Source: Candidatus Kaiserbacteria bacterium
Lineage (GTDB): Bacteria; Patescibacteriota; Minisyncoccia; Phycocordibacterales; UBA918
Reading direction: 5' to 3'
NCBI GenBank assembly: GCA_043770255.1
Contig: JAYVIL010000049.1
Coordinates: 1-35,313, forward strand
DNA length: 35,313 nt
Under the pieces are notes generated by a model, which saw only the letters and a list, made by a program, of their open reading frames with translations, had not been told where the DNA came from and made no database searches. Below are positions 1-33,459 of this stretch, piece by piece. The stretch's first letter is position 1, and every line of letters starts with the position of its first letter. The position numbers and the translations under genes were made by a program.

Positions 1-863
1 GTAAAGCCGAGGAACAGTAAAATTAAAAGCGTGCTCCCGATAAATCCAAATTCTTCGGAATACACTGCAAATATCGAATCACCAATTGGCTCAGGCAGAT
101 ACTCAAATTTTTGAATACTTTGGCCAAAGCCGCGCCCTGAAAATCCCCCAGAGCCGACTGCTATGAGTGATTGCTGAATTTGGTAACCGGCCCCCTGAGG
201 GTCATCCTCGGGGTGCATAAAAGTAGTAAGTCTATCCATGATGTATGGTCGCATAAACGCCACGAGTGCCAGTAGCACAACTGCCGCTAAAATCATGTAC
301 CCAACATCGCGCCAGCGGCCGCCGGCAGTAACAAACATAGCCAGCGCCGCCGCCGCCATAATCATAAACGTGTCAGTGTCAGGCTGGAGCAACATCACTC
401 CGCCGACCAAACCCACAATCCCTATAAACGGCAGAGTCCCCGCTACAAAAGACGTCACGTGTTGATTCATCCCAGATAGCCACGTGGCCACATAAATCAC
501 AAAACCAATTTTTAGAATCTCGGCTGGTTGGAGTGAAAAGCCCAGAATGTTAATCCACCTCGTAGCTCCGCCGTGGGTGGCACCAATACCCGGCACAAAC
601 ACAGCCAGCGTAATCAGAACAGAAAAAATAAAGATATAAAATGCGTACTGCCGTAAATTCCGGTAGTAAATATTAGAGAGGAAAAACATCGACAAACCTC
701 CCCCGACAATACCGAATAAAAATTGATTAAAAGCGACGCTCGAGAAACTGGCGCCGGTGCGGGCGAGGAGTCCAAGCGACGCCGAAGAAAATATCAAAAA
801 ACCACTGACTACCAAAACGAGTACTAGTGCAAGTAAAATTTTATCGACGGGCTTTGCTTTCAT
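1..863 (-). CDS. ftsW: FtsW/RodA (SEDS) peptidoglycan glycosyltransferase, 3' end outside the window
   Basis: Not in the ORF track; translated by hand from ATG 863: MKAKPVDKILLALVLVLVVSGFLIFSSAS...GATRWI...QPAEILK...YQIQQSLIAVGSGG...LPEPIGDSIFAVYSEEFGFIG (SEDS motifs). Lies next to mraY. Confidence 0.93.
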   Translation of the reverse strand, partial: MKAKPVDKILLALVLVLVVSGFLIFSSASLGLLARTGASFSSVAFNQFLFGIVGGGLSMFFLSNIYYRNLRQYAFYIFIFSVLITLAVFVPGIGATHGGATRWINILGFSLQPAEILKIGFVIYVATWLSGMNQHVTSFVAGTLPFIGIVGLVGGVMLLQPDTDTFMIMAAAALAMFVTAGGRWRDVGYMILAAVVLLALVAFMRPYIMDRLTTFMHPEDDPQGAGYQIQQSLIAVGSGGFSGRGFGQSIQKFEYLPEPIGDSIFAVYSEEFGFIGSTLLILLFLGF

Positions 864-889
864 AGGTGTTCATCAGTATACCCTATCGT

Positions 890-1948
890 CTATGCGACAG
901 TGGCAATGGCCAGGCCGGCAATACCACACATGATACTGATAACCCAGTACCGCATTACTACTTTAGTAGACGGCCACCCTATTGCTTCAAAATGGTGATG
1001 CAGTGGTGCAATCCTGAGCAATTTCCGACCAGTGATTTTTTTGTAAACAACCTGGAGCAAAACTGAAGCCGCAGTTGCCACGAGTGGTAGTCCAATCAGA
1101 GGCAGGAGTAAAATCCCCTTGCCGTCACCCAGTTCATCGGTCATAAATACCACTACAGCTAAAGTGAGCGTAAGCGCCATCGAGCCAGTTTCCGTCATCC
1201 AGAAACGAGCCGGCGGAATATTGAACCATAAAAATGCCAGAATTCCGCCGGCTACCGTCGCACAAAAAGCGGCCAGGTCGTACTGGGATTGATTAAAGGC
1301 AATACCCGCATACGCGAGGAAGATAGTTGAAAATACGCCACCAGAGAGTCCATCAATGCCATCAATTACTCCACTGGCGTAGAGAGCAATAGTGGTAAAA
1401 ATAAAAAACGGAATTATTAACCAGCCGATGTATAAAGACCCATCAAACGGTACTCCCACACTATCTATACCCAATTTGGCATAAAACCACCAGCCAATAA
1501 ATCCAGATAGTGCAGTGATGATGAGTATGCGCACTGACAGTCGCAAACCCTTGCCTCCGTGCATAACATCATAATAGTCATTAAGTAACCCAACTCCCGC
1601 GCCAATCACGAGTGTCGTAAAAGGAATCCAAGTTTCGGACCGACTGACAAAAAATAGATCATCAAAAACACTATTGGGGAAAAGCAGTTTAAGTATATAA
1701 ATAAAGCCAATAGTGACGAGCACTGCTCCCCAGATCACGATTCCGCCCATGCGTGGGGTTTTTAACTCCCCTTCCCCTTTGAGGCGATTAAACTCCGTTG
1801 CTATGGTCCCATTAAGCGCCATCTTGCCACCAGTTTTTTTCCAGACTTTATATTTGTACAGATAGTGCGTGAGCAGTGGCGTCATCAAAATGCCAAAAAT
1901 AAAAGCGAGCGTGGCTGGAATGAGAATTGAAAAAATTGGGTACTCCAT
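890..1948 (-). CDS. mraY: Phospho-N-acetylmuramoyl-pentapeptide transferase (divergent)
   Basis: KTPRMGG, DGIDGL, FNIPPA and APLHHHFE motifs; multi-TM; next to ftsW. Confidence 0.92.
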   Translation of the reverse strand: MEYPIFSILIPATLAFIFGILMTPLLTHYLYKYKVWKKTGGKMALNGTIATEFNRLKGEGELKTPRMGGIVIWGAVLVTIGFIYILKLLFPNSVFDDLFFVSRSETWIPFTTLVIGAGVGLLNDYYDVMHGGKGLRLSVRILIITALSGFIGWWFYAKLGIDSVGVPFDGSLYIGWLIIPFFIFTTIALYASGVIDGIDGLSGGVFSTIFLAYAGIAFNQSQYDLAAFCATVAGGILAFLWFNIPPARFWMTETGSMALTLTLAVVVFMTDELGDGKGILLLPLIGLPLVATAASVLLQVVYKKITGRKLLRIAPLHHHFEAIGWPSTKVVMRYWVISIMCGIAGLAIATVA

Positions 1949-1951
1949 ACA

Positions 1952-2971
1952 TTATTCGGTAGTTTTGATTGAGTTAGTAACAGCGTTCACCAGCTTTTTG
2001 ACATCAGTAAACCGTCCATCAAAGCTTGATCCTAGCACGGTGATAATAATGGGTCGATTATACCCAGCATCAAACGCAATAGTCAGGTTGCCACCGGCGA
2101 GGTCAGTATAGCCAGTTTTTGAGCCCAGCAGGTTGGGGATTTGGGTGACGATGGGGTTTGTGTTTTCTGCTGAATGGTAGGTGCCAGCTTCGTTGTAGAC
2201 ACGGGTAGAAGTAAAGGTGCTTGGTTCCAGGATGTTGGGATAGTTGTTTAAAACGTACTCCATGAGAAACGTAACTTCTCGCGCAGTCCCCAAAGCGCCA
2301 GCGTGTGTAGTATCGATATCTAAACCAGTAGGATTATAAAAAATAAAATTATCGAGACCAAGTTCTTCAGCTTTGATATTCATGGCATTTACAAAAGTCT
2401 GATTGGGGTTTGTCTTGTCAATTACGGCACCAACAGCTGCCGCCAAAGCAAATGCTGCGTCGTTTGATGAGGCGAGCATGGCATAATCTGACAACGATTC
2501 GGCCGTGATTACTTCACCGGCGCTCAGCCCACTGGCGCCTGACTGCGAAATGGCAGACTCAGGGACAGTAATTGTTTTCTTTTCATCAATGAGTTCGTAG
2601 GCAACGAGCGCAGTCATGAGTTTAGTAATAGAAGCCAGTGGCAACACTTTGTCAGCCCCTTTGACATACAAGGCCTTTTTACCACGCACATCATAGACAA
2701 AGGCGGCCGTACCTTCGATTTGAATATTTTCGATGGTATCGATAGTAGCTAGCGACTCCGCAGCGAGCATGAGCGGTGTCGTCGGAGCCGTATTGATACC
2801 AGCGTCATTATTTTTAGCCAGGAATTTAGGTAAAAAGCTCGCCGAAAACACCAGTACCAAAACAAGCCCGAGGAGTGATAGCTGGGCCAGTACCGGAAAA
2901 CGGCGCTCTACTACCGCGGGCGGGTTGGTGTCTTCGACCGTTTCAATCATGTAGTCGGTGTCATCAATCAT
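1952..2971 (-). CDS. Serine D-Ala-D-Ala carboxypeptidase (peptidase S11), membrane anchored
   Basis: SxxK (ASITK), SxN (SSN) and KTG motifs; one N-terminal TM segment. Confidence 0.9.
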   Translation of the reverse strand: MIDDTDYMIETVEDTNPPAVVERRFPVLAQLSLLGLVLVLVFSASFLPKFLAKNNDAGINTAPTTPLMLAAESLATIDTIENIQIEGTAAFVYDVRGKKALYVKGADKVLPLASITKLMTALVAYELIDEKKTITVPESAISQSGASGLSAGEVITAESLSDYAMLASSNDAAFALAAAVGAVIDKTNPNQTFVNAMNIKAEELGLDNFIFYNPTGLDIDTTHAGALGTAREVTFLMEYVLNNYPNILEPSTFTSTRVYNEAGTYHSAENTNPIVTQIPNLLGSKTGYTDLAGGNLTIAFDAGYNRPIIITVLGSSFDGRFTDVKKLVNAVTNSIKTTE

Positions 2972-3510
2972 AGCGATGTTTCAGGGGCGGTGTGTTGTTC
3001 AAATTTTTCGAGCTCATTTACAATTCGCGAAAACTCAGGTAAATCACGACTGCCCGCTACGCCGAGCTGTGCCAGGAGCGCCGGTGTCCCCGAGAATGTA
3101 TACCCACTACCCTTCCCGCTGGCATTTCGTTCGATTAGTCCACGAATCATCAGATTGCGAAGAATAAACGAAGAGTTCACTCCACGGACTTGATCTATGG
3201 CACTACGAGACACCGGTCCCCGATACAACACAATCGCTAAAGTCTCTGCTCCCGCTTTTCCGATATCGTTTTTAATGTCCGCTTTTCGGATTTGCTCGAT
3301 AAATGGAGCGAGCTCTGGTGCGGTCGCGAGGGCGATTTCTGTATCAGTTTCTACTAGTCTGGTGGCTCCCCTAGTCAGGCGCTCCTTTAAATGGGAGATA
3401 GCAGCCTGTAAATCACTTTCCGATACAGAATAAAGCTTCAAAAGTGAAGTCTTTTTCTGCGGAGCTGACTTATAAAAAAGCAGTCCTTCAATCAGGATAT
3501 CAAGCGGCAT
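2968..3510 (-). CDS. scpB: SMC-Scp complex subunit ScpB
   Basis: IEGLLF; AETLAIVLYRGPVSRSAIDQVRGVNS; LMIRGLI. Confidence 0.93.
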   Translation of the reverse strand: MPLDILIEGLLFYKSAPQKKTSLLKLYSVSESDLQAAISHLKERLTRGATRLVETDTEIALATAPELAPFIEQIRKADIKNDIGKAGAETLAIVLYRGPVSRSAIDQVRGVNSSFILRNLMIRGLIERNASGKGSGYTFSGTPALLAQLGVAGSRDLPEFSRIVNELEKFEQHTAPETSL

Positions 3511-3599
3511 TGTAGTTAGTGTACCACAGTTTTACCCTGAAAAAACAGCTTATTTTAGCTAATTATTGTTGACAACACCCAAATCTCCAATCCTAATGC

Positions 3600-3628
3600 T
3601 TGACTTTTGAATTTAAGTATGCTACTAT
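3600..3628 (+). promoter_or_regulatory. Sigma70-type promoter for the 3635-4273 unit
   Basis: TTGACT (3600-3605), 17-bp spacer ending TGn, TACTAT (3623-3628). Confidence 0.7.
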
Positions 3629-3679
3629 AGTAAATACCTGACGCAGCAACAGTTGCGCGTCAGAAATCAGGAGGCTCGT

Positions 3680-3781
3680 ATGTTTACGTCGAACTTTTCG
3701 CCGCAGGCCAAAGTGCCCGCAGTTGCTCAAAAAACCTTGTCCGACATTCACCGGCGCCCAATGGGCCACAACCAGATCTGA
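3680..3781 (+). CDS. Possible 33-aa micropeptide MFTSNFSPQAKVPAVAQKTLSDIHRRPMGHNQI
   Basis: AGGAGG (3669-3674) 5 nt before ATG, just downstream of the promoter; no homology recognised. Confidence 0.3.
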   Translation: MFTSNFSPQAKVPAVAQKTLSDIHRRPMGHNQI

Positions 3782-4231
3782 CCGACCAAGACCGGCGGAC
3801 CAGGTCGGTTGCGGGGCGAATCCTTAGGGGTGGCCACCGCCGATAACTGACTGGTCTTACTACCCGGAGTGACTCCTGCCGATGGCGCGCGATGTGCACG
3901 TGCAGGAAGTTCACTCCGTTGGGCGAATTAGACTCGAAACAAAAAAAGGAGCTGCGATGCTGATGAAAATCCGCATTCGTGATCCCACCCACTAGCGTCA
4001 AACTCGCTCGGTGGTTGAGAAAAAAAGGTTGGCAGTTAACCTCAAACTGTCTGCGACGCAACAGGGAGAGACTCCGATGAAGATCTTTCGATTATGATTC
4101 ACTGAGCTTTGGTCGGCAAACACCCTCCTAGGCTCAGAAAGAAGTCCACTTTTCAAATGGGACCCCGGCTTCTGATAACCGAGAGAAAATAAGTTCAGTC
4201 AGGTTAGAATCACCTTAGGCCCAAAGCATTT

Positions 4232-4273
4232 TAACCCCGCACATGTCAGTCATGTTGCGGGGTTACTTTTTTT
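4232..4273 (+). terminator. Intrinsic terminator
   Basis: TAACCCCGC-ACATG / CATGT-t-GCGGGGTTA stem followed by a T run. Confidence 0.8.
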
Positions 4274-4303
4274 GTAAAATTTCGAATTACCCATCGTCCT
4301 TAC

Positions 4304-4351
4304 TGTGTAACCTTGAAACTATTCAACTATTCAACAATTAAACTATTCAAC
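4304..4351. repeat. Degenerate 8-bp tandem array (consensus about TATTCAAC), 6 units
   Basis: tgtgtaac cttgaaac tattcaac tattcaac aattaaac tattcaac, directly after the scpA stop. Confidence 0.8.
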
Positions 4352-4354
4352 TAA

Positions 4355-5098
4355 CTAGTAGTATCTCGGCGTACTTCCCTGTTCTAACTCAATTTCAATA
4401 TCATCAAATCGCCCGAGTTGGGTCACCAATACATTTCCTTGTTTAACTAATTCTAAAATCGCCAAGAAGCCCACAATCACTGTCTTGTGCTCAGGTGCTT
4501 CGGCGCGCAGTTGGGAGAACTTGGTTTTTAGTTGGGTTTCAATACGTCGCTTAAGATTATGCATCATTTCCTCTAGACTAATGGTCTGCTTTACCTGCAC
4601 CTTAGGTTTGATTTCTTTTTTCGGCAGGTTGAGGAGGACACTGTCCATGGCTTCGCGTAGGGCGTCGGTAGTACAGTATTCGTCGGGAATAAATAGGGCT
4701 TCTTTGGGTGCCACAAACCGTGGACTGTAGAGTGGTGTTTTGCCAAAAATACTTGCCAGGTGCTGACCGGCATCACGGTAGATTTGGTATTTACGCAACC
4801 TGTCCTCGAGATCATCAATCAACACTTCTTCCTCGGGAGTGAGTTCAAGTACCGGTAGGAGCGATTTTGATTTAATCAGAAGCAACGTCGCTGCCAGTTG
4901 CACAAACTGCGCTGTGTGCGGGAGTGACTTCTCCTGCATAGCACTCACTTGTTTGATATATTCATCGGTAACTTCGGCGAGAGAGATGTCGTTAATAAGA
5001 AGTTTCCTCTTCTCCACGAGTTCAATCAGCAACTCCAAAGGCCCCTCAAACACATTTGATTTAAAAGAAAACGCGAGCGGGATAGCAGTTAGAGACAT
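4355..5098 (-). CDS. scpA: Segregation/condensation protein ScpA (kleisin)
   Basis: FEGPLELLIELV, AATLLLIKSKSLLP, FLAILELVKQG, Q..RFDDIEI. Confidence 0.94.
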   Translation of the reverse strand: MSLTAIPLAFSFKSNVFEGPLELLIELVEKRKLLINDISLAEVTDEYIKQVSAMQEKSLPHTAQFVQLAATLLLIKSKSLLPVLELTPEEEVLIDDLEDRLRKYQIYRDAGQHLASIFGKTPLYSPRFVAPKEALFIPDEYCTTDALREAMDSVLLNLPKKEIKPKVQVKQTISLEEMMHNLKRRIETQLKTKFSQLRAEAPEHKTVIVGFLAILELVKQGNVLVTQLGRFDDIEIELEQGSTPRYY

Positions 5099-5127
5099 GT
5101 AGATATTTTAACACATACAAACCAATT

Positions 5128-5487
5128 TCATTGCGAGGGACGAAGCAATCTAGATTCATATCAAAAGTGAGATATCTTTCCATGTTGGATTTTCTTTTTC
5201 AATGAGTAGCATTTTTGATACCCTCGATCCTGCTTTAAGTTGTTTTTCTTGTTCAATTGCTTGTAACATTGATTCACAATGTTCTGCGTAAACGAGTGTG
5301 TGTAATTTATATTTTTTTGTAAACGCGCTCCCGAAACCACTCTTATGCTCGTCTACACGTTTAGGTAAATTATTAGTAACGCCAACATACAAAGTACCGT
5401 TTCGTTTATTGGTTAAGATGTAGATAGCAGGTTGCAAATTAGGTGTATGTTTAAAGAATCTCTAGATTGCTTCGTGCCTCGCAATGA
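5128..5487. mobile_element. GIY-YIG gene bracketed by 27-bp inverted REP-like repeats
   Basis: TCATTGCGAGGGACGAAGCAATCTAGA (5128-5154) against the reverse complement of 5461-5487: 26/27 identical. Confidence 0.7.
5156..5437 (-). CDS. Small stand-alone GIY-YIG nuclease (UPF0213/YhbQ-like)
   Basis: AIYILTN..NGTLYVGVT.NL..RV.EHK, FTKKY, E.QLK...R..K..LIE..NP.W.D; TTG start. Confidence 0.9.
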   Translation of the reverse strand: MQPAIYILTNKRNGTLYVGVTNNLPKRVDEHKSGFGSAFTKKYKLHTLVYAEHCESMLQAIEQEKQLKAGSRVSKMLLIEKENPTWKDISLLI

Positions 5488-5502
5488 CGGATAGAGAAAT
5501 AT

Positions 5503-6915
5503 TTAATACGTCTCGAGCCATTTAATAAGTAAACGTACTGGTTCGCCAGTCGCACCTTTGGCTAGTTTGTCGCTCGGGATACTGTCCATTCGGGGAGCGA
5601 TATCGAGGTGAGCGAAGGGGGTGTTTTTTGGCGCAAAGGCATCGAGGAACATACCGCCTTCAATCGCCCCACCCCACTTGGCGAAATTGGTAGCAATGTT
5701 ACTGATATCAGCCCGAGCACTCTTGAGTGGGCCTTTATATTCATCCCATAATGGTAGTGGCCAGATTAAGTCACCGGCTTCTTCACAGAGCGTGCGCAGT
5801 GCGGTCTCGAGATTTATATCACGAGTCATAACCGCACTCGCTTGTTGACCAAGAGCCACTAAGGCGGCACCGGTTAAGGTCGCTACGTCAATAATCGCTC
5901 GGGGTTTATAACGCTGGCTGTATGTCAGCGCGTCAGCGAGCACGAGTCGTCCCTCGGCGTCAGTGTGGAGAATCTCTACCGTGGTGCCGGACATTGACGT
6001 GACAATATCACCAGCCCGCATACTGCGGCTACTGATAGCGTTTTCCGCCGCCGGGATCAGGGCGATGATATTTTTCTGTAGCCCGAGCTTACTCGCCGCC
6101 ACAACCGCCGCCATCACGGCGCTTCCACCGGACATGTCCATATGCATATCATGCATCGCCCCTGACGGCTTTACATTAAGTCCCCCCGTGTCATAGGTGA
6201 TACCTTTTCCGATGAGTACCAGTGGTGCCTCTTTTTTATTTTTACTTCCCCAATATTCCATTAGGATAAATTGTGGTTCGTTGTGTGATCCTTTACCCAC
6301 TGCTGCGACTAAATTCATCTTTAGTTTCTGTATCTCTTTGAGACCGAGCACTGTAACAGAGACCTTGGTGCCAGCAGCCAACTTTTCAGCAGCTGTACCG
6401 AGAGCTTTAGGAGTAAGGTCATCACCATGCGTGTTGGCGATATCGCGAGCGATATTTACGTACTCTGCTACAATCTTCCCGCGCTTGAATCCAGTTTTTG
6501 CTGCCACTGAATTTTGCTCGCACAAGGCAATTTCTTTGAGAGATTGTTTAGTATCGGGTTTTGATTTATAAACAGTGTAGTCGTACGCAGCCAGAGACAG
6601 GTTCTCAACTATCGTCGAGGTAAACCAGGCTTCGTCGTACATATGTAGTTTTGGAAAACTATTGCGATCAAGCTGTATAGTCGCATACTCAACCTTGTGT
6701 GCCTTGAGTGACTGGACCACACTACGAAGCATTGTGCGGAAGGTACGTGGCGTCACCTCACTCCACTTCCCCAGCCCTTGGCGGTACTCTGTGTGAAGAG
6801 CTGCCGTTTCTACAAAACGGTGGGTGCTGACGGTATCTTCTGTGAAAACAATACGAGTATATTTTGTATCAAGGGACGAAACATCTTTTGTAGCTAAGGT
6901 AATTTTAGTAGACAT
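5503..6915 (-). CDS. pepA: Leucyl aminopeptidase (M17)
   Basis: GKGITYDTGG, DMSG, TDAEGRL, ATLTGA, HLDIA. Confidence 0.93.
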   Translation of the reverse strand: MSTKITLATKDVSSLDTKYTRIVFTEDTVSTHRFVETAALHTEYRQGLGKWSEVTPRTFRTMLRSVVQSLKAHKVEYATIQLDRNSFPKLHMYDEAWFTSTIVENLSLAAYDYTVYKSKPDTKQSLKEIALCEQNSVAAKTGFKRGKIVAEYVNIARDIANTHGDDLTPKALGTAAEKLAAGTKVSVTVLGLKEIQKLKMNLVAAVGKGSHNEPQFILMEYWGSKNKKEAPLVLIGKGITYDTGGLNVKPSGAMHDMHMDMSGGSAVMAAVVAASKLGLQKNIIALIPAAENAISSRSMRAGDIVTSMSGTTVEILHTDAEGRLVLADALTYSQRYKPRAIIDVATLTGAALVALGQQASAVMTRDINLETALRTLCEEAGDLIWPLPLWDEYKGPLKSARADISNIATNFAKWGGAIEGGMFLDAFAPKNTPFAHLDIAPRMDSIPSDKLAKGATGEPVRLLIKWLETY

Positions 6916-6990
6916 GGTGGTAATTATAGCAGGTTATAACTTCAGTTGACGATGTAAAAAAAGAGAGTATTGTACTTTAAGAGGACTGAC

Positions 6991-7314
6991 ATGAGGTGTA
7001 CGGTGAGAGATATCAGGCAACTCCGTGATGAGCTTTACTTTGTAGATGTTTATTTTATCAAAGATAAACCGGCTGTTCGAATGTATTTTCAGGTTGACTT
7101 TTGGACTCACCACAAATGTAATATTGTTCGTCCCGTTATCATCGATGTTGAAAAGGTGACTGCCACTGTGGTGTCGCTCGAGATGGAAAAGCCTTGGGCA
7201 AAAATTGTGACACGAAAATTAATTCAAAAATACGGCTTGCTAAGAGTTTTGAATTTAAGAAAAGTAAAGAATATGAAAAAAACACAAGCCTTATTCGAGT
7301 TGAGAAAGGCTTGA
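6991..7314 (+). CDS. Hypothetical protein (107 aa, basic C-terminus)
   Basis: Start moved to ATG 6991, preceded by GAGGA; putative promoter TTGACG (6946-6951)...TATTGT (6968-6973); terminator follows. Confidence 0.65.
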   Translation: MRCTVRDIRQLRDELYFVDVYFIKDKPAVRMYFQVDFWTHHKCNIVRPVIIDVEKVTATVVSLEMEKPWAKIVTRKLIQKYGLLRVLNLRKVKNMKKTQALFELRKA

Positions 7315-7320
7315 ACCATC

Positions 7321-7360
7321 AACCGCCTTACGGAATCCGTCCGTCGGGCGGTTCCTTTTT
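7321..7360 (+). terminator. Intrinsic terminator
   Basis: AACCGCC...GGCGGTT stem with inner pairing, then CCTTTTT. Confidence 0.7.
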
Positions 7361-7375
7361 AATGGTCTAATCTTA

Positions 7376-7531
7376 TACCATTCCCAACTAACCATTGCAC
7401 ACTTCAATCTTAATTCTGGCTGCAAAACTGCGTTTCGCTTTCTCCATATCTCGATATGGTTCAAGCTCCAACTTGTTTTTCGCTCTGAATTAAAATTGAA
7501 GTTATTGTGCAAGAGTTATTTGGGGATGGTA
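7376..7531 (-). repeat. ~156-bp long imperfect palindrome (MITE-like), copy A
   Basis: Terminal IR 7376-7392/7515-7531 (15/17); inner arms ACTTCAATYTTAATTC; apex CCATATCGAGATATGG on the minus strand. Confidence 0.8.
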
Positions 7532-7567
7532 TTACGATTAATCGTATGATTATGGCTTCTTGGTCGA

Positions 7568-7600
7568 CAAAAAACCTCTCAGTTAACTGAAAGGTTTTTG
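7568..7600. terminator. Probable bidirectional terminator after aspS
   Basis: AAAAACCT-c-TCAG / CTGA-a-AGGTTTTT hairpin with A/T tails. Confidence 0.7.
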
Positions 7601-7615
7601 TTGGAAATCTCAAGA

Positions 7616-15878: not shown

Positions 15879-16652
15879 TCATTCAGCAGGGTTCATCGCT
15901 GGCTTTGGTTCTCTTGCTGCAAAGATGGCCATGAGACCATGCATCACCGTGTTGATTACAGGATAGGACATCAGTGCCAAGAAGGCGTAGAAATGTATGT
16001 CCCACGTTAGCGGCGCGGCAGACACAGGCCACACCATACCCTTACTACCATGTACCCAGGTGGGCACAAGAAGTAGCGCATAAGCCATAGCCCAGATCGC
16101 CCACGGCCGAGCGTCTTCTTTTTCTGGATGTGCCCAGGCTTGCCTGAGGATCGGCACGAAGTTCGGAAACGTCGTCAGGTTTGATGCAACCAGGAAGGCA
16201 ATGACCCACCACAGATGCACGTCCCCTTCAGTCGTCCCAAACAAAGTGAAGATCCATAGAGCGGAGTAACAAACGGTCAGTCCGATGTCAGTAGCAAATG
16301 CCTTGCCATCGGTTTCTTTCCAGTCGATCTTCCATTCCTGCGGCCACCATTTTTGAGTCGTACGGAAGTTTTGGCGCCAGATTCCTACTGCCACACCGAT
16401 GCCCCCAAGGGAGCATATAATGGGTAGAAGTAGAACGCTGAGCACGTTCATCCATGAAAAATCTGCAGTAGCGTCTTTGCACATGGAGTCGAGCTCCATG
16501 ATGGTTAACACTGCTGTGCCGTACGCAAACATGAACCAGGTTAGGGGCTCAGCCTCCTTGCCATCTTTCCGGATGACGAGGAGATAGTACGTTATGTATC
16601 CAGCTAGCTGAAACATTCCGGCTGCAAGACCAACGTATGTGGCATCGACCAT
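15879..16652 (-). CDS. Multi-TM protein with internal repeat (PQ-loop/SWEET-like), paralog 2
   Basis: Aligns with paralog 1 (TWFMFAYGTA, KWWP..W, SNL.TFP.F.PI, HPEKE, YP..N...H); own SD AGGAGG (16663-16658) and promoter TTTACT-17-CATAAT (16712-16684). Confidence 0.7.
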   Translation of the reverse strand: MVDATYVGLAAGMFQLAGYITYYLLVIRKDGKEAEPLTWFMFAYGTAVLTIMELDSMCKDATADFSWMNVLSVLLLPIICSLGGIGVAVGIWRQNFRTTQKWWPQEWKIDWKETDGKAFATDIGLTVCYSALWIFTLFGTTEGDVHLWWVIAFLVASNLTTFPNFVPILRQAWAHPEKEDARPWAIWAMAYALLLVPTWVHGSKGMVWPVSAAPLTWDIHFYAFLALMSYPVINTVMHGLMAIFAAREPKPAMNPAE

Positions 16653-16735
16653 GTCGACCTCCTAAAAAATAACTTCTGTTTAAATTATGTCACAATTAGT
16701 GTAAAAAGTAAAGTGATGGGTGTGGAATTTTTTGG

Positions 16736-17554
16736 TTAGAGATTGTTTGAGGCAATGAAAGCAGCTTTGTGTATTTCAGAATTGTAGTACTTTGTTGAAA
16801 GCCCCTTCGTTCTATTTTGCAAGCTCCGGGGTGAGATTTTTGTGATGTCTGTCACTTGACTTCCCCAGGCTATGGCCAGTGGTCCGCCGATGTACATTGG
16901 TACGTTGATTAGAAAAATTCCAGAATGGTTAAATAATTTTTTAAAAGACTTACGGGTGTTTTCTACAACTTTCGGCTGCATGTTGGGGACGCCAGTGATG
17001 CTCGTAAACAGTCCGTTTTTCGCCAGAGCTTGTACACAGTTGGTATAAAAACTTTGTGTAAATAGTGGATGCCCGGGACCGACTTCATCTCCACGGTCAG
17101 TGATAATGACATCAAATTTCTCGGTAGTGGTCTTCACAAATTCTGCAGCATCGGTCACAATCACGTTTAGACGAGGATCTACAAAGGCGTTTGAGATTAA
17201 ACTCTTAAGATGCTTTTTAGATAGCTCAATAACACGGGCATCAATTTCAACCAAGGTCACAGATTCTACATCATGCTTAAGTACTTCACGTACAATACCC
17301 CCGTCCCCTCCTCCGAGTACTAAAATATGTTTTGGCTTAGCATGAGATGATAGTGATATGTGCGCGAGCATCTCATGGTAAATGTGCTCATCTTTTGCAG
17401 TTAACTGAACAATGTCATCTAAAAAAAGTACCTTGCCGTGTAAAGGGGTATCGATAATTTCAATTTTTTGGAAGGCCGATTGTTCAGAGCAGATCACTTT
17501 TTTGACAGCAAATCGTTGCTCGTAGCCTGTATATAGTTGTTCAGCTTTCCACAT
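16736..17554 (-). CDS. speE: Polyamine aminopropyltransferase (spermidine synthase)
   Basis: S.FQKI, LDDIVQ...DE.IYHEML.H, LGGGDGG..REVLKH, VEID, DVIITD, YY....H.AAF. Confidence 0.92.
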   Translation of the reverse strand: MWKAEQLYTGYEQRFAVKKVICSEQSAFQKIEIIDTPLHGKVLFLDDIVQLTAKDEHIYHEMLAHISLSSHAKPKHILVLGGGDGGIVREVLKHDVESVTLVEIDARVIELSKKHLKSLISNAFVDPRLNVIVTDAAEFVKTTTEKFDVIITDRGDEVGPGHPLFTQSFYTNCVQALAKNGLFTSITGVPNMQPKVVENTRKSFKKLFNHSGIFLINVPMYIGGPLAIAWGSQVTDITKISPRSLQNRTKGLSTKYYNSEIHKAAFIASNNL

Positions 17555-17558
17555 AAAT

Positions 17559-18080
17559 TTATCGAGAAAACGTTAAACAACTTTTAGTACGCACAAAAAT
17601 ATTTTCCTCGGGGTATGAATGAATACTTTCGATTTCAATTTTTGAATCCGTAACTGTAAAACCAATAATTGTTACGGGTGCAGGACCTGATGATTCTCCT
17701 GCTGGGAAAGTATGTGTCAAGACATTGTCATGTTGACTTATTTTGACTTCGTCGGTCAAAATTGAGTGTTTGGCGTGCTCAAATGTGTATGACCATTTTG
17801 TGTCAACATAGGTAACTTTTTTTGGAAGAGTCGTTAGCTCGCCACTAACAATTGGTTTAGTTTCGAATTCACCACTAGTACAAGCGCATATTTCAGTTAC
17901 TTTTAAATCTGGAACTTGAACCGTCACGAAGTGACTTTCACTCAAAATCCCAAAAAACACCTCACCAAGCGGAGTCATAATTGTCTTTTGCGCAATCACT
18001 TCAAATTGTTCAATATTTGGCTCTCCAGCTATGACAAATAAATGTAGCTGATCTGAACTCTGTTCAGTATATGTAATCAT
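17559..18080 (-). CDS. DUF2617-like protein
   Basis: GIL..SH.V, TEICAC, FP.....P.T and H.YP.E...V.T.S pattern recalled for DUF2617; needs an HMM check. Ends 4 nt before speE. Confidence 0.6.
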   Translation of the reverse strand: MITYTEQSSDQLHLFVIAGEPNIEQFEVIAQKTIMTPLGEVFFGILSESHFVTVQVPDLKVTEICACTSGEFETKPIVSGELTTLPKKVTYVDTKWSYTFEHAKHSILTDEVKISQHDNVLTHTFPAGESSGPAPVTIIGFTVTDSKIEIESIHSYPEENIFVRTKSCLTFSR

Positions 18081-18089
18081 TATGCTATA

Positions 18090-18118
18090 ACTATAGCACG
18101 ATTAAGTAAAAATGTAAA
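18090..18118 (-). promoter_or_regulatory. Promoter for DUF2617-like/speE
   Basis: TTTACA (18118-18113), 17 bp ending TGn, TATAGT (18095-18090). Confidence 0.65.
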
Positions 18119-18256
18119 GGAAAATTGCTTGGTTGTGGGTAAGTACTAAAAAAATTTACAAATACTCTGCCTGTTATGGTTTAAATCTCAGTTTATTTTA
18201 CGAGGTGTTTTAACTCCCCTATCAATTATTTGCTCAACTCAATACGTACGATTTAT

Positions 18257-18742
18257 TTAGTTAAAATACAGAAAAACCATTGGTAACAATAGCCACCAGA
18301 AGAACCATTCTTTAGGGGCGAAAAGTGAGGCGATTGGGGTCCCGGGAGTAACAAATTCGGTGATGGGTAGAACATGGAAGCTGTATACCATAATGAGGAT
18401 TGTGCCACCAAGGGCTAACAGTAGTTTTTTTAAAAAACTTTCAAACTTCTTTTCCCGAAACGGGCTAGGCATCACCCGAGCAACAAGAATAGTTGCGACA
18501 GCAGTGAATATGCCAAAAATTACCATCTTCCCTATTGCCAATGTATGCGCGCTTCCTCCAGCTGGGAGGAACGTCTCGTAGTATGGAAATTCAAGCGAAA
18601 TAAGCAACGCAAAATACAACCCAAAAATAACATTAATAACCGCCTGCCTCCCCCGTGCCACCCCCCACCCCAAAAACACCCCAAACACCACAAAAAAGAA
18701 AACCAATTCCTGAAGTAGACTAAGTAAGTACGAAGTGTCCAT
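18257..18742 (-). CDS. Hypothetical membrane protein (4-5 TM, possibly CvpA-like)
   Basis: Hydrophobic segment pattern; -10 TATAAT shortly upstream; family uncertain. Confidence 0.7.
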   Translation of the reverse strand: MDTSYLLSLLQELVFFFVVFGVFLGWGVARGRQAVINVIFGLYFALLISLEFPYYETFLPAGGSAHTLAIGKMVIFGIFTAVATILVARVMPSPFREKKFESFLKKLLLALGGTILIMVYSFHVLPITEFVTPGTPIASLFAPKEWFFWWLLLPMVFLYFN

Positions 18743-18796
18743 GTCCTTCTAATTATAGACCTAAAACTTTTTTTGATGTAAACACATATGGGATAA

Positions 18797-19479
18797 AAAA
18801 TTAGGGGTCAGACCCCTAATTTTGATATAATTATGTAATGCCACGAATCACAGTACCTCTCGTTGAGGGTGAACGGTACCATGTCTACAATAGAGGGGCT
18901 GACAAAAGAGATATTTTCTTATCAAAAAAGGACTACCTTCGTTTTTACTTATCATTAGATTTATTTAACTCAATAGAGCCAGTTACAAATTTTGAATTTG
19001 CTAAGGTTCATAAGAAGAAAAACACAATTTCACCAAAATTAGTTAAAATAATTGCATATTGCTTACTCCCCAACCACTTCCACTTACTACTTGAGCAGGT
19101 TGCGCCTAATGGAATAAGTGATTTTCTAAAAAGGGTATCTGGCGGATATACTAGTTATTTTAATCTACAGCAGGAAAGATCAGGGGTATTATTGCAAGGC
19201 AGGTTTAAGAGGGTCTTGATTGATTCAGATGAACAGTTTAATTACTTATTGTCGTATGTAAATGAAAACCATATTGTACATGGTATTAACTTCGAAAGAG
19301 AAATATGTCATTCAAGTTCTCTGCACTACCAAGGCGTTTATAAAAGCAAACTTATAGAAACAAATATTCCGAACTATAACTTTAGTGAATCTATTGATTT
19401 AGCATTGAGTATTTATGAAAAACGAGCTAAACAAAAAATATCTGATTTGCTCGAAAATTAGGGGTCTGACCCCTAATTT
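18797..19479. mobile_element. Y1/HUH transposase bracketed by inverted perfect-arm palindromes (REP-like)
   Basis: AAAATTAGGGGTC-A-GACCCCTAATTTT (18797-18823) and AAATTAGGGGTC-T-GACCCCTAATTT (19455-19479). Confidence 0.8.
18838..19461 (+). CDS. IS200-like / REP-associated tyrosine transposase (Y1_Tnp)
   Basis: YHVYNRG..K..IF, AYCLLPNHFHLL (HUH), RSG.L.QGRFK, catalytic Tyr region SYVNEN; AT-rich; opposite strand to its neighbours. Confidence 0.9.
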   Translation: MPRITVPLVEGERYHVYNRGADKRDIFLSKKDYLRFYLSLDLFNSIEPVTNFEFAKVHKKKNTISPKLVKIIAYCLLPNHFHLLLEQVAPNGISDFLKRVSGGYTSYFNLQQERSGVLLQGRFKRVLIDSDEQFNYLLSYVNENHIVHGINFEREICHSSSLHYQGVYKSKLIETNIPNYNFSESIDLALSIYEKRAKQKISDLLEN

Positions 19480-28395: not shown

Positions 28396-28620
28396 TTATA
28401 GTCGTTTGCTAATTCGTGCTTTGCCGCCGTAGGGGTCGATAACCATACCAACTTTGTCTCCAACGAGCACTCTGATTCTAAAACGTCGCATCTTGCCAGC
28501 AAGATAAGCAATTTTTGACTCCCCCGTGACATCAATGATCACACGGAAAAGAGCATTCGGGAGGGCTTCCTCCACAACGCCATATGTTAATTCATCTTTT
28601 GTCGATTCTTGCTCTGCCAT
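28396..28620 (-). CDS. infA: Translation initiation factor IF-1
   Basis: [17 protein letters not shown]...IR.L.GD.V; start at ATG 28620, with promoter TTGACG-17-TACACT (28661-28633) upstream. Confidence 0.96.
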
Positions 28621-28668
28621 TACGCGAGGGTGAGTGTAACAAATCAAATAGAATTCGTCAATACATCA

Positions 28669-31402: not shown

Positions 31403-31511
31403 GTTACAAAGTTTAATAGTTGCATGGTTGCATGGTAACGTTCGAACAATGTAACTTTGCAACTATGCAACTATCAAACCATTCAACCATGCAACAATTA
31501 AACTATTTAAC
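31403..31511. repeat. Two opposed degenerate 8-bp arrays (4 GTTnnnnn units, then 8-9 nnnnnAAC units)
   Basis: gttacaaa gtttaata gttgcatg gttgcatg ... aatgtaac tttgcaac tatgcaac tatcaaac cattcaac catgcaac aattaaac tatttaac. Confidence 0.8.
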
Positions 31512-31518
31512 TACTATT

Positions 31519-33459
31519 TTACTCTAAAACAGCTTTGATACGCCTCACTCCGGCTGAAGAAGATTCTTCTTTGGTAATTTTGAATGTTCCATTGATATCT
31601 TCTAATTTCTCAACATGGGGCCCACCACAGAGTTCTCGCGACACAACTGCTCCGTCACTCGTTGTCATGGTGTACACCTTTACTTCATCAGGGTACCTAT
31701 CCCAGAAGCTGGCTTCAATCGTGGGATCGGTTTCGGCTTCTGTTTTCTTCATCATGTTAATCGCAACTGTTCCACCAAGCGTAATTGCCTCGTTAACAAA
31801 TTTCTCTACGGCCGTGATTTGTTCAGTGGTCATTTTGTCACCGTGTGTAAAGTCGTAACGGAGGCGTTCACCGGTAATGTTTGAACCAGCTTGATGGACG
31901 TGAGTTCCTAAGATTTGTCGCAAGCCAGCCAGCATCAGGTGGGTGGCGGAGTGGTACGCTACTACCTGCTCTGAACTATCAGCCAGTCCCCCTTTGAATT
32001 TTTGCTCAGCACCAGCTCGGGATAGGCTGCGGTGTTCTTCCATCAGGGTGTCAAACGTACTGCGTTCAACAATCAGTCCTTTTTCAGCCGCAATTTCTTC
32101 GGTTAATTCAATTGGGAAACCGTAGGTTGTATAAAGTTCAAAGGCGTTTTGTCCAGAAATAGCTTGTTTAGTAGTCGGAGCGACCGATTTATCAATCATT
32201 TTCTTTCCGTCCACTTCTTTACTCACCACGTGAACTTGGAGGGTGATTTTATTAAATTGTTTTAATCCAGCCTCTAGTGTCTTGCGAAATTGTTCTTCTT
32301 CTCTGGCGATAATATTCGCAATCGATTCTGCTTTTTCTAGTAAATATGGATACACATCACTGTACATATCAGCAATTGGCCTGACAACATTAGCAAATTT
32401 ATTTTCTCCGACACCAAGAATATCTGCATGACGTACAGATCGGCGAATCAGCCTGCGTACAAAATAACTCTGGTCAGCATTACCAGGTTCAATGCCGTCT
32501 GCAATTAAAAACACTGCCGCTTTCATATGGTCGGCAATTACGCGGAATGATTTTGTATTTTTTTCATCTTCCCCGTACTTTTTACCTGAATGTTTTTCAA
32601 AATATTCGAGTATCGGACCATGATTGGTTGGAAACACGTCAGAACTGTTGTTTACAGCGGCAGCAATACGTTCTAAACCTCCACCGTAGTCAACGTTTTT
32701 ATTGGGTAGGTTATCAAAACCAGTTTCGGTTTTAACATACTGCATAAAAACAGAATTCCCAAGTTCAATATAGCGACCGCAATCACAGTTTGGGTGGCAC
32801 TTTTCCCCCCACTTGGTATCGTGAACAGTCTTAGGGAAAAGGTAAAAAACTTCTGAATCGGGACCACCTGGTTCGCCCGCCGGCATTTTGCTTGGACCGC
32901 CGGCACGACTCCACCAGTTTTTGTCACCATAGAAGAAAATTCGCCCATCCTGATCGCCAACAACATAGCCGTTTTCCTCTGTTCCAATGTCTACTTGTTT
33001 CGTATCAAGTTGTTTCGCAGAAAAAAGTTCGGTCCAGATAGCAGCACTTTCTTCGTCTTTTGGAATATTTGCTTCGGGATTACCGATGTAACAGGTGACA
33101 TAAATCCGAGCTGGATCAAGTCCAATCTCGTCTGTAAGAAATTTCCAAAACTGTTTAATTTGTTCGTCTTTAAAATAATCACCCAGAGACCAGTTCCCCA
33201 GCATTTCAAAAAACGTTGTGTGACGATTATCGCCTACTTCTTCGATATCGCCAGAACGAAAGCATTTTTGCGAATCAGCTAACCGTGTACCCATAGGGTG
33301 TGTCTGCCCCATAAGATATGGAATAAGCGGCTGCATCCCACTGCCGGTAAATAGCGTTGTCGGGTCGTTTTCAGGCACTAAGGCAGCTGAAGGCATGATG
33401 GCATGACCATTTTGCTTCATAAACTCCAAATATTTGCTCCGAATCTCGTTTCCTGACAT
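31519..33459 (-). CDS. alaS: Alanine--tRNA ligase, short form lacking C-Ala
   Basis: DPTTLFTGSGMQP, H.TFFEMLGNWS.GDYFK, GLER; editing motifs HSATH and ELCGGPH; ends at GVRRIKA. Confidence 0.97.
   Translation of the reverse strand: MSGNEIRSKYLEFMKQNGHAIMPSAALVPENDPTTLFTGSGMQPLIPYLMGQTHPMGTRLADSQKCFRSGDIEEVGDNRHTTFFEMLGNWSLGDYFKDEQIKQFWKFLTDEIGLDPARIYVTCYIGNPEANIPKDEESAAIWTELFSAKQLDTKQVDIGTEENGYVVGDQDGRIFFYGDKNWWSRAGGPSKMPAGEPGGPDSEVFYLFPKTVHDTKWGEKCHPNCDCGRYIELGNSVFMQYVKTETGFDNLPNKNVDYGGGLERIAAAVNNSSDVFPTNHGPILEYFEKHSGKKYGEDEKNTKSFRVIADHMKAAVFLIADGIEPGNADQSYFVRRLIRRSVRHADILGVGENKFANVVRPIADMYSDVYPYLLEKAESIANIIAREEEQFRKTLEAGLKQFNKITLQVHVVSKEVDGKKMIDKSVAPTTKQAISGQNAFELYTTYGFPIELTEEIAAEKGLIVERSTFDTLMEEHRSLSRAGAEQKFKGGLADSSEQVVAYHSATHLMLAGLRQILGTHVHQAGSNITGERLRYDFTHGDKMTTEQITAVEKFVNEAITLGGTVAINMMKKTEAETDPTIEASFWDRYPDEVKVYTMTTSDGAVVSRELCGGPHVEKLEDINGTFKITKEESSSAGVRRIKAVLE

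Follow-up and report, generated by a model that had tools for sequence, protein, structure and literature searches.

Here, we describe a predicted transcription unit that lies between the condensin genes scpB and scpA of a Candidatus Kaiserbacteria bacterium (NCBI GenBank assembly GCA_043770255.1), on contig JAYVIL010000049.1, positions 1-35,313 of which are referred to below as the window. Both condensin genes lie on the minus strand, are intact and read cleanly under translation table 11, and are separated by a spacer of 844 nt (3511-4354), inside which the unit runs on the plus strand from about 3635 to 4273. As predicted from the sequence, a promoter and an intrinsic terminator of its own delimit a short transcript, which contains three short open reading frames (ORFs), each led by a Shine-Dalgarno (SD) sequence, and a conserved non-coding 3' domain. 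The reading that we favour, to which we give about an even chance, is that the unit serves as mRNA for a small peptide and has, in its 3' part, a conserved and functional RNA domain, making it a candidate dual-function RNA in a recurrent cassette site. A sequence-only reading of the same DNA had earlier proposed an undescribed large non-coding RNA (ncRNA) or, alternatively, a micropeptide-encoding regulatory RNA; a separate, undescribed plus-strand unit stands, and it is the micropeptide alternative that the comparison with relatives has strengthened (12 of 19 units have an SD-led ORF where 0.55 would be expected, see below).

Relatives were gathered through ScpB, the window's own protein being aligned with 40 of the 120 matches listed (41 proteins in all) and the alignment scanned against species-representative genomes, which gave 80 related Patescibacteria loci (named L001 and so on). 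By their record titles, the closest ScpB relatives are Patescibacteria, Kaiserbacteria or Paceibacteria metagenome-assembled genomes. scpA was found beside scpB in 70 of the 80 loci, with a gap of <150 nt in 44 of these, 150-240 nt in two and 240-1960 nt in 24, in keeping with the earlier premise that the two genes are usually adjacent. Because 24 of 70 relatives have a gap of at least 240 nt, a large insert is recurrent at this site; the split is not unique to the window genome, and the insert is common but patchy in the clade, being absent from L003 and L009 and present in the similarly related L001, L002, L008 and L014. When the window spacer was compared with relatives by blastn, L001 matched at the promoter region and over the last 258 nt (81.8% identity), L002, L004, L005, L008 and L014 matched at the promoter region, L002 also over 39 nt at the terminator, and L033 matched over 34 nt at 91% identity. 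The predicted unit length in relatives, read manually, runs from about 220 to 650 nt. The contigs of L004, L005 and L054 end inside the insert just past the conserved promoter, at 327, 211 and 94 nt upstream of scpB, respectively, which would fit assembly breaks at a strain-variable region.

Table 1. Features of the scpB-scpA interval and extra ORFs in inserts at the same site (window positions, unless a locus is named; free energies are compared with shuffled sequence)
Feature	Position	Strand	Evidence or remark
scpB, flanking gene	2968-3510	-	Pfam SMC_ScpB, E 6.1e-30
Upstream promoter-like site TTGACA-17-CCTAAT, in tandem with the main promoter	3569-3597	+	read from sequence
Main promoter TTGACT-17-TACTAT, extended -10 TGcTACTAT	3600-3628	+	score 9/12, TG before -10
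5'-terminal hairpin CUGACGC/GCGUCAG, ending 5 nt before the SD	3638-3663	+	-15.2 kcal/mol, z -2.31, 6/200 shuffles
SD AGGAGG (3669-3674), 5-nt spacer, short ORF 1 (sORF1, 3680-3781), 33 codons and TGA, MFTSNFSPQAKVPAVAQKTLSDIHRRPMGHNQI	3669-3781	+	
Variable G+C-rich spacer with local hairpins, the largest at 3865-3920	3782-3945	+	not alignable to relatives
SD AAGGAG (3946-3951), micro-ORF 2 (3957-3995), MLMKIRIRDPTH, 12 codons	3946-3995	+	
Conserved non-coding 3' domain, ~210 nt	4027-4231	+	identity to L001
SD GGGAGAG inside a small GGAG/CUCC hairpin, micro-ORF 3 (4077-4097), MKIFRL, 6 codons	4064-4097	+	
Hairpin CUGAGC.../...GCUCAG with anti-SD-like CCCUCCU (4123-4129)	4102-4137	+	-17.1 kcal/mol, z -2.96, 1/200 shuffles
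Terminal module: H1 (4172-4176/4194-4198), H2 AGGU/ACCU (4200-4204/4212-4216), CCCAAAG (4220-4226)	4172-4226	+	
Intrinsic terminator: 14-pair bulged stem (4232-4265), then T7 (4267-4273)	4232-4273	+	folding
scpA, flanking gene, convergent with the unit	4355-5098	-	Pfam SMC_ScpA, E 3.2e-19
Extra insert ORFs	L015:4164-4559, L033:3891-4178, L047:4259-4564, L058:4360-4851, L060:3084-3455, L045:4719-4901	- (of loci)	

The main promoter, which the sequence-only reading had called near-consensus, bears that description out in its score and in the TG before its -10 element, and transcription is predicted to start near 3634-3637. Promoter-like sites number three in 3300-4600, against 1.3 +/- 1.0 in shuffles, and a stricter pattern of TTGAC with an extended -10 is found at two sites in the 35-kb window, the unit promoter and 28661 on the minus strand. 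Since the only other such site drives infA-rpmJ-rpsM, the unit promoter is predicted to belong to the strongest local class. The site at 28661 (28396-28661, minus strand) directly precedes infA, with rpmJ and rpsM following, and the infA ATG stands 12 nt after the -10, a nearly leaderless arrangement. Patescibacteria genomes are tiny and tightly packed; it is therefore improbable that a spacer of 844 nt lies idle when it holds one of the two strongest promoters in 35 kb. The promoter region (3568-3627) is 85% identical to that of L001; 18 of the 24 large-gap loci, together with the three contigs that end inside the insert, carry TTGAC-N16-18-TAnnnT at a distance of 58-100 nt from the start of scpB, and the -10 block AGTATGCTAyTrTA is nearly invariant in the window, L001, L008, L014 and L033. 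The GTTGACAAC of the upstream promoter-like site is kept in L001, L002, L008 and L014, and also in the short-gap loci L003 and L009.

At the other end of the unit, the strong terminator that had been claimed was recovered by folding, 4228-4272 reaching -22 kcal/mol (z -6.84) with none of 200 shuffles as good; a simple terminator scan missed it, probably owing to the bulge in the stem. L001 and L002 likewise have a hairpin at this place, its upper stem being different, and a pairing of the U tail of the terminator with upstream A runs is not conserved in L001. The distance from the terminator to the scpA stop is 82 nt, and transcription of scpA may end here too. The plus strand is favoured by the promoter, the ribosome-binding sites (RBSs), the T-run, the G-U pairs and a lower fold z-score, which for 3634-4272 is -4.69 on the plus strand against -3.21 on the minus strand (20 shuffles each).

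Between these limits no long ORF is found on the plus strand, as the sequence-only reading had noted, the longest of those touching 3600-4273 having 42, 37, 34 and 33 aa; a 125-aa ORF with a TTG start lies on the minus strand (3684-4061). All three of the mini-ORFs with SD and ATG that had been read there are present (Table 1). Among 19 promoter-bearing units, the window included, 12 have an ATG ORF of 26-48 codons that is led by GGAG, GAGG or AGGA and lies 29-63 nt after the -10, and the same scan for SD-led ORFs of at least 25 codons in 200 dinucleotide shuffles per unit gives an expectation of 0.55 units. Because an SD-led ORF recurs at a like offset so far above expectation, sORF1 of the window is most likely translated. 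Stable, well-translated mRNAs usually begin with a 5' hairpin and then a strong RBS, and the stretch from start site to ATG folds better than shuffles in all 12 sORF-bearing units (z <= -1.9 in seven), with hairpin sequences that differ from one unit to the next (Table 1 for the window; CCUGAG/CUCAGG in L001; UACCCG/CGGGUA in L002). The alternative pairing of CCUGA (3637-3641) with UCAGG (3667-3671), which overlaps the sORF1 SD and had been suggested earlier, is kept in L001, there formed by CCUGAG and CUCAGG.

The sORF1 peptides can be aligned between some pairs of loci. The L001-L002 alignment scores 28, which none of 1000 shuffles reaches, and the window-L002 alignment scores 7, reached by 29 of 1000; in both pairs the annotated frame is the best of nine frame pairs and the differences peak at third positions (24 vs 14 and 12 for L001-L002, and 24 vs 16 and 13 for window-L002). 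By manual reading, the window and L002 peptides have SNFSP in common, with four synonymous differences. The mean column identity of the sORF1 peptide alignment is 22%. A profile of nine of the peptides, searched against 5.8 billion proteins, matched only three of its own query peptides (L040, L014 and L015), recorded as hypothetical proteins; four of the peptides matched no Pfam family, and an ESM Atlas search with the L040 peptide peaked at 0.76, short of the threshold that the tool sets for a lead. We conclude that a translated short ORF is probably a conserved feature of the unit, its sequence being under weak or diversifying constraint, and that the peptide most likely changes too quickly for homology to be seen across the family.

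Identity to L001, the nearest relative, is 28-55% over the middle of the unit (3628-3937), whose ~300 nt appear to be unconstrained; G+C content peaks here at 62.5% (3701-3900), against 44% for the whole window, and the largest hairpin of the spacer reaches -31.7 kcal/mol (z -2.85, 3/200 shuffles). Micro-ORF 2 follows and has a counterpart in L001, MPGKIRIRDPTALLKSR, within a region (3938-3997) of 65-68% identity. Over the eight codons that the two share (KIRIRDPT), all four nucleotide differences are synonymous by manual reading and would be non-synonymous on the opposite strand. The loose pattern [IMLV]R[DGA][PD]T has 15 matches in 1,498,380 residues of six-frame translation, eight of them in inserts, and half of these eight ([IM]R[DG]PT in the window, L001, L063 and L074) are found early in an ORF that is led by an SD. 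When TGA is read as sense in L001 (4161-5000, minus strand of the locus), a single frame that contains five TGAs begins where sORF1 does, takes in micro-ORF 2 and ends at a TAA; we treat this frame as a side effect of G+C-rich sequence. A hidden long gene with TGA as sense was rejected for the window, where a TAG stops the frame, micro-ORF 2 stands in another frame and the flanking genes follow table 11.

The conserved 3' domain was judged against a near-neutral baseline, namely the third codon positions of scpA and scpB, which are 48% and 40% identical to L001, respectively. Against this, the domain (4032-4227) is 75-93% identical to L001 in 40-nt windows, as conserved as the first and second codon positions of scpA, and the sequence on both sides lies near the baseline. 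The block at 4027-4231 cannot be coding, as its alignment gaps (2, 2, 1 and 1 nt) are not multiples of three and no frame is free of stops; purifying selection on it is predicted. A search by nhmmer with the whole domain found only L002 (E 4e-4, the terminator-proximal part) and L033 (E 5e-4, a 34-nt stretch). The latter stretch, 4054-4087, is 91% identical in the distant L033 and holds the RBS region of micro-ORF 3, whose peptide is identical in L001 and reads MKMFLCI in L033. Downstream of it, in the hairpin at 4102-4137, the CCCUCCU is partly paired to a conserved GGUCGG in the predicted fold and is complementary to the AGGAGG of sORF1 and to SDs generally. The pairing of CTGAGC with GCTCAG, already noticed in the sequence-only reading, is kept in L001 through a change of the closing pair from C-G to U-A, and most other L001 differences within the hairpin fall in its loop.

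The terminal module of this domain recurs beyond L001. The loop of H1 holds CCGAGAGAAAA (4179-4189), and the 11-mer CCGAKAGAAAA has four matches in 749,352 nt searched on both strands, all of them in inserts and in the same orientation (window, L001, L047 and L074). A covariance model built from the window and L001 (68 nt, two hairpins) found L047 at E 0.0049 and L074 at E 0.071, the next match being at E 0.93, and both loci are distant, with ScpB 58% and 51% identical, respectively. A second model built from these four sequences gained no fifth member (next best E 0.52). In a four-sequence alignment helix H1 covaries, two of its five pairs being changed on both sides, with a covariation score of 0.300 against 0.140 +/- 0.058 (12 of 500 shuffles reach it). 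L002 keeps the AGGU/ACCU hairpin, the CAAAG stretch and the terminator only. The terminal two-hairpin module thus appears better supported than the rest of the 3' domain structure, for which support from covariation in the predicted fold is weak.

On the reading that we favour, an independent plus-strand transcript would be made from about 3635 to 4273 between scpA and scpB, driven by a strong sigma-70-type promoter with an extended -10. The 5' hairpin would probably stabilise the RNA and partly mask the RBS, the consensus SD would load ribosomes on the 33-codon ORF, whose peptide appears to be very fast evolving, and an unconstrained G+C-rich spacer would come next. Two micro-ORFs, of 12 and 6 codons and each with its own RBS, would then be followed or overlapped by the conserved non-coding domain, with its hairpins, C-rich anti-SD-like stretch and A-rich loop, before transcription stops at the strong terminator, which would at the same time protect the convergent scpA. 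The promoter, the 5' hairpin, the RBS with its ORF and the terminator are predictions from sequence that conservation backs. We infer that the sORF1 peptide is made and of consequence, that the 3' domain acts as RNA (a regulator, a protein-binding element or a stability element), and that the micro-ORFs couple translation to the structure of the 3' domain. The 3' part could accordingly be a 3'-untranslated region (UTR)-type regulator, a protein-binding domain or a translation-coupled element served by the micro-ORFs. If this is right, the unit would be the first candidate dual-function RNA for this radiation, the scpA-scpB site would be a recurrent hypervariable cassette site that gene callers have mostly missed (three of the nine profile peptides are recorded), and the conserved RNA module, with its CCGAGAGAAAA loop and AGGU/ACCU hairpin, would be searchable in metagenomes.

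Several results weigh against this reading, some on the RNA side and some on the peptide side. The full 3' domain is found in one relative only (L001) among the 80 loci, and a recent exchange of the 3' block between lineages would also yield high identity. A covariation check on the domain had been suggested, and it gave nothing significant: of 54 pairs predicted by RNAalifold from the window and L001, two are changed on one side, two on both sides and 50 never vary between these two sequences, and 146 of 500 shuffles match the two both-side changes, a result that from two sequences speaks neither for nor against a structure. The four-sequence alignment in which H1 covaries was fitted to the structure and represents two clades, hence perhaps one event. 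The module model finds only four of 81 sequences and misses L002, a locus no further from the window than L001. Duplex energies between the unit and 35 gene start regions, calculated by a crude method, single out no target or partner and contain no outlier, with -24.8 for scpA and -25.0 for scpB against -22.9 +/- 4.5. As for the peptide, the window-L001 alignment scores -3, which 416 of 1000 shuffles reach, and a leave-one-out profile, in which ten sORF1 peptides are used to find the eleventh, recovers none of 11. The window peptide has no match, not even itself, among 1.84 billion representatives, and so has apparently never been called as a gene. Because family-wide peptide homology is absent, the case for translation of sORF1 is argued mainly from the position of the ORF and not from its sequence.

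The rival explanation that survives best, which we regard as unlikely, is a plain small-protein gene or tiny-peptide operon with a long, functionless 3' UTR, the 3' likeness to L001 being due to recent recombination or to the needs of the shared terminator and of the 3' end of scpA. The positional conservation of the SD-led ORF agrees with it, as do the small protein genes found in the same slot elsewhere (164 aa in L058 and 61 aa in L045), the confinement of the full 3' domain to one relative and the lack of significant covariation in that domain. It accounts poorly for a conserved block that begins ~200 nt before the terminator with both flanks near neutral, for the recurrence of the terminal module and its 11-nt loop motif in loci as distant as L047 and L074, and for the L001 differences being mostly in predicted loops. 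A small orphan gene with a long UTR, if it is only that, would be of local interest.

A single structured ncRNA of ~630 nt is what the sequence-only reading had put first, and we hold such an RNA, with the mini-ORFs taken as fortuitous, to be quite improbable. The fold z-score of the whole transcript, the many local hairpins, the lack of any protein family match and the failure of the peptides to be conserved family-wide would all agree with such an RNA. What stands of it is the constraint on the non-coding 3' part (75-93% identity vs 40-48%); the unaligned middle, with some 300 unconstrained nt at the centre, does not fit, nor do a unit length that varies from about 220 to 650 nt among relatives, the SD, ATG and ORF of at least 25 codons at a fixed offset (12/19 vs 0.55), the in-frame peptide alignment being the best of nine frame pairs, and the want of any Rfam family match. 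The helices proposed earlier fared unevenly when folded in isolation: the CTGACGC/GCGTCAG hairpin is better than most shuffles (Table 1), GGCAGTT/AACTGTC has z -1.57 (18/200 shuffles) and is kept in L001 through a change from G-U to U-G, and ACCGACC/GGTCGGT, with z -0.50 (54/200 shuffles), is no better than chance. The two proposed long-range helices break in L001, where TGATTC-ACTGAGC/GTTCAGT..GAATCA loses 3 of its 13 pairs and the supposed switch or pseudoknot pairing GCTTTGG/CCAAAGC loses 4 of its 7, in neither case with compensation.

The neighbouring scpB gene has a promoter of its own. Its extended -10, TGgTACACT (3526-3518, minus strand), ends 7 nt before the ATG, and its mRNA is probably leaderless. 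In the short-gap relatives L003-L035, TGnTAnnnT likewise stands 6-8 nt before the scpB ATG and, as in the window, there is no SD, on which grounds scpB looks leaderless and separately promoted across the clade. The scpB and unit promoters stand back to back, ~75 nt apart. This arrangement, together with the fixed scpA-scpB location in 24 of 70 relatives and a terminator so near the scpA stop, would suit a cis-regulator of the condensin genes, one that tunes scpB initiation or antisense read-through into scpA with micro-ORFs that sense translation status, and the Arg-Asp-Pro-Thr of micro-ORF 2 is loosely like RAPP-type arrest cores. We give this explanation a slim chance, as 44 of the 70 relatives lack the insert, the terminator is strong (-22 kcal/mol and T7), micro-ORF 3 ends 135 nt before it, too far for a direct ribosome effect, complementarity to the scpA and scpB start regions is not beyond the background of 35 genes, and the arrest core is without the required last proline. 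A leader-peptide attenuator or arrest regulator was rejected because no same-orientation gene lies downstream, the next gene, scpA, being on the opposite strand.

A decayed gene, or what is left of a mobile element, is a very improbable explanation of the unit. The insert is patchy among close relatives (absent from L003 and L009, present in L001, L002, L008 and L014), the content of the slot varies and the 125-aa minus-strand ORF is there to be explained; as a protein gene, however, this ORF was rejected, having no Pfam match, no entry but its own record among 5.8 billion proteins and a frame that is lost in L001. The decayed-gene homologues for which a translated search had been suggested did not appear, tblastx of the spacer against 26 other inserts giving nothing beyond the DNA-level matches, and the promoter, RBSs and 3' domain are predicted to be under constraint. 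The spacer has no match in phage and plasmid collections and, apart from an 8-nt tandem repeat, no second copy of the unit is found in the window or the 80 loci. As there are also no terminal direct or inverted repeats round the unit, an insertion sequence or miniature inverted-repeat transposable element was rejected. The tandem repeat, AACTATTC, is present in 4.6 copies at 4317-4353, directly after the scpA stop; a similar array of about seven copies (AACTATGC / CAACTATT) lies at 31445-31513, directly after the stop of a 646-aa gene (31519-33459, minus strand), and related, CTATTCA-like repeats adjoin the scpA stops of L002 and L014. Elsewhere in the window, a 207-aa ORF (18838-19461, plus strand) has a weak match to an IS200-like Y1 transposase (E 3.3e-4, which falls short of the Pfam cut-off).

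A type I toxin-antitoxin-like pair, in which a short antisense RNA that covers the beginning of micro-ORF 3 would control a small-peptide mRNA, is barely credible: a promoter-like site on the minus strand (4119-4091), an A7 and hairpin at 4022-4049 that reads as a minus-strand terminator and, in L033, a hairpin adjoining the shared 34 nt (4531-4581 on the plus strand of the locus, the window's minus strand; -28.7 kcal/mol, z -3.22, U6) point towards it, but the window hairpin is weak (-4.5 kcal/mol, z +0.31, 120/200 shuffles as good), L001 has no U run and does not keep the minus-strand -35, and the window peptides, being hydrophilic or only 6-12 residues long, are unlike known type I toxins. 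The pairing of a hydrophobic toxin with an overlapping antisense RNA is thus seen neither in the window peptides nor in the minus-strand hairpin, and the candidate was rejected. The terminator-like hairpin of L033 is directed away from scpA and, for that genome only, would suggest an antisense RNA over the micro-ORF start.

Other inserts at this site differ in what they carry. Several hold unrelated extra ORFs of 61-164 aa that belong to no Pfam family and of which some are membrane-like (Table 1), and a Pfam search of eight accessory ORFs of other inserts found no family at a credible E. In L036 (4642-5000) and L042 (4697-5000), on the minus strand of the loci, the same slot holds an ORF-less unit of ~190 nt with a similar promoter and a terminator; the two are 72% identical over 93 nt, match no Rfam family and may represent a different small RNA. 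The scpA-scpB gap behaves like a small hypervariable island, and we propose that related Paceibacteria and Kaiserbacteria may use it for small, highly expressed cassettes. A bolder version, which we consider distinctly doubtful, is that the condensin operon of these lineages contains a dedicated expression slot in which hypervariable micro-peptides and a conserved riboregulator are served by a promoter of ribosomal-protein strength. Were it true, ultra-small episymbiotic bacteria would possess a class of fast-evolving peptide-plus-RNA cassette that has not been seen before; the peptides might have a role in contacts with the host or with competitors, and the 3' domain, which has the anti-SD-like CCCUCCU and an A-rich loop, might be a regulator of translation specific to the lineage.

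Known RNA families were searched for across the window and its relatives. None of the 4227 models of Rfam 15 matched the whole window at gathering score, and a lax search of 3450-4420 gave four matches, none better than E 1.1 (17.5 bits, where the gathering score is 82); 15 related loci gave no match at gathering score and six loci searched in E-value mode gave nothing credible. ARAGORN found no tRNA or tmRNA. The sequence-only reading, which could not match the unit to tmRNA, RNase P or 6S RNA, was right in this respect, and the large Rfam and housekeeping RNAs (tmRNA, RNase P, 6S, SRP, OLE, ROOL, GOLLD, HEARO and raiA) were rejected since no model reaches its gathering score. Pfam annotation of 20 ORFs at window positions 3-19461 identified, besides scpA and scpB, FtsW/RodA-family, glycosyl transferase family 4, D-Ala-D-Ala carboxypeptidase family (Peptidase_S11) and GIY-YIG proteins, an M17 aminopeptidase and class I and class II tRNA synthetases; a precursor of a ribosomally synthesised and post-translationally modified peptide was rejected, as no adjacent modifying enzyme, protease or transporter of the kind expected was found among these neighbours.

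Set beside known systems, the unit shares single traits with several. It resembles the RAPP-like arrest peptides (SecM, ApdA, ApdP and ApcA) in having an Arg-x-Pro core, IRDPT, in a short ORF within a structured RNA, and differs from them in the fourth residue, which is Thr and not Pro. The arrest core is reported to be R-[AGDS]-P-P or RAGP, with proline as the final residue, the SecM P166A (RAGA) and RAPG variants to be arrest-defective, and RDPP to be partly permissive and under-represented (PMC12992588). By this rule, micro-ORF 2 was rejected as a RAPP-like arrest peptide, its core being R-D-P-T (R-G-P-T in L063, R-D-P-T in L074) without the final proline. A search of the open-access literature on small RNAs and small proteins of Patescibacteria and the candidate phyla radiation returned nothing relevant. 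With the large Rfam and housekeeping ncRNAs the unit has in common its size range, a strong promoter and a G+C content above the surrounding genome, but it matches no Rfam model.

Two other classes come closer. Dual-function small RNAs (sRNAs) that encode a peptide, such as RNAIII/hld, SgrS/SgrT and SR1/SR1P, are stand-alone units of a few hundred nt with their own promoter and terminator, and the unit likewise combines a short SD-led ORF with a separately conserved non-coding part that contains hairpins and a C-rich stretch; it differs in having three ORFs, not one, and a peptide that is not conserved family-wide. With the sRNAs that derive from a 3' UTR and share the terminator of their mRNA, the comparison lacks any evidence of processing or of an internal promoter in the unit, but the likeness lies in the distribution of constraint, the unit being best conserved in its last ~250 nt, terminator included, and its upstream coding part evolving faster.

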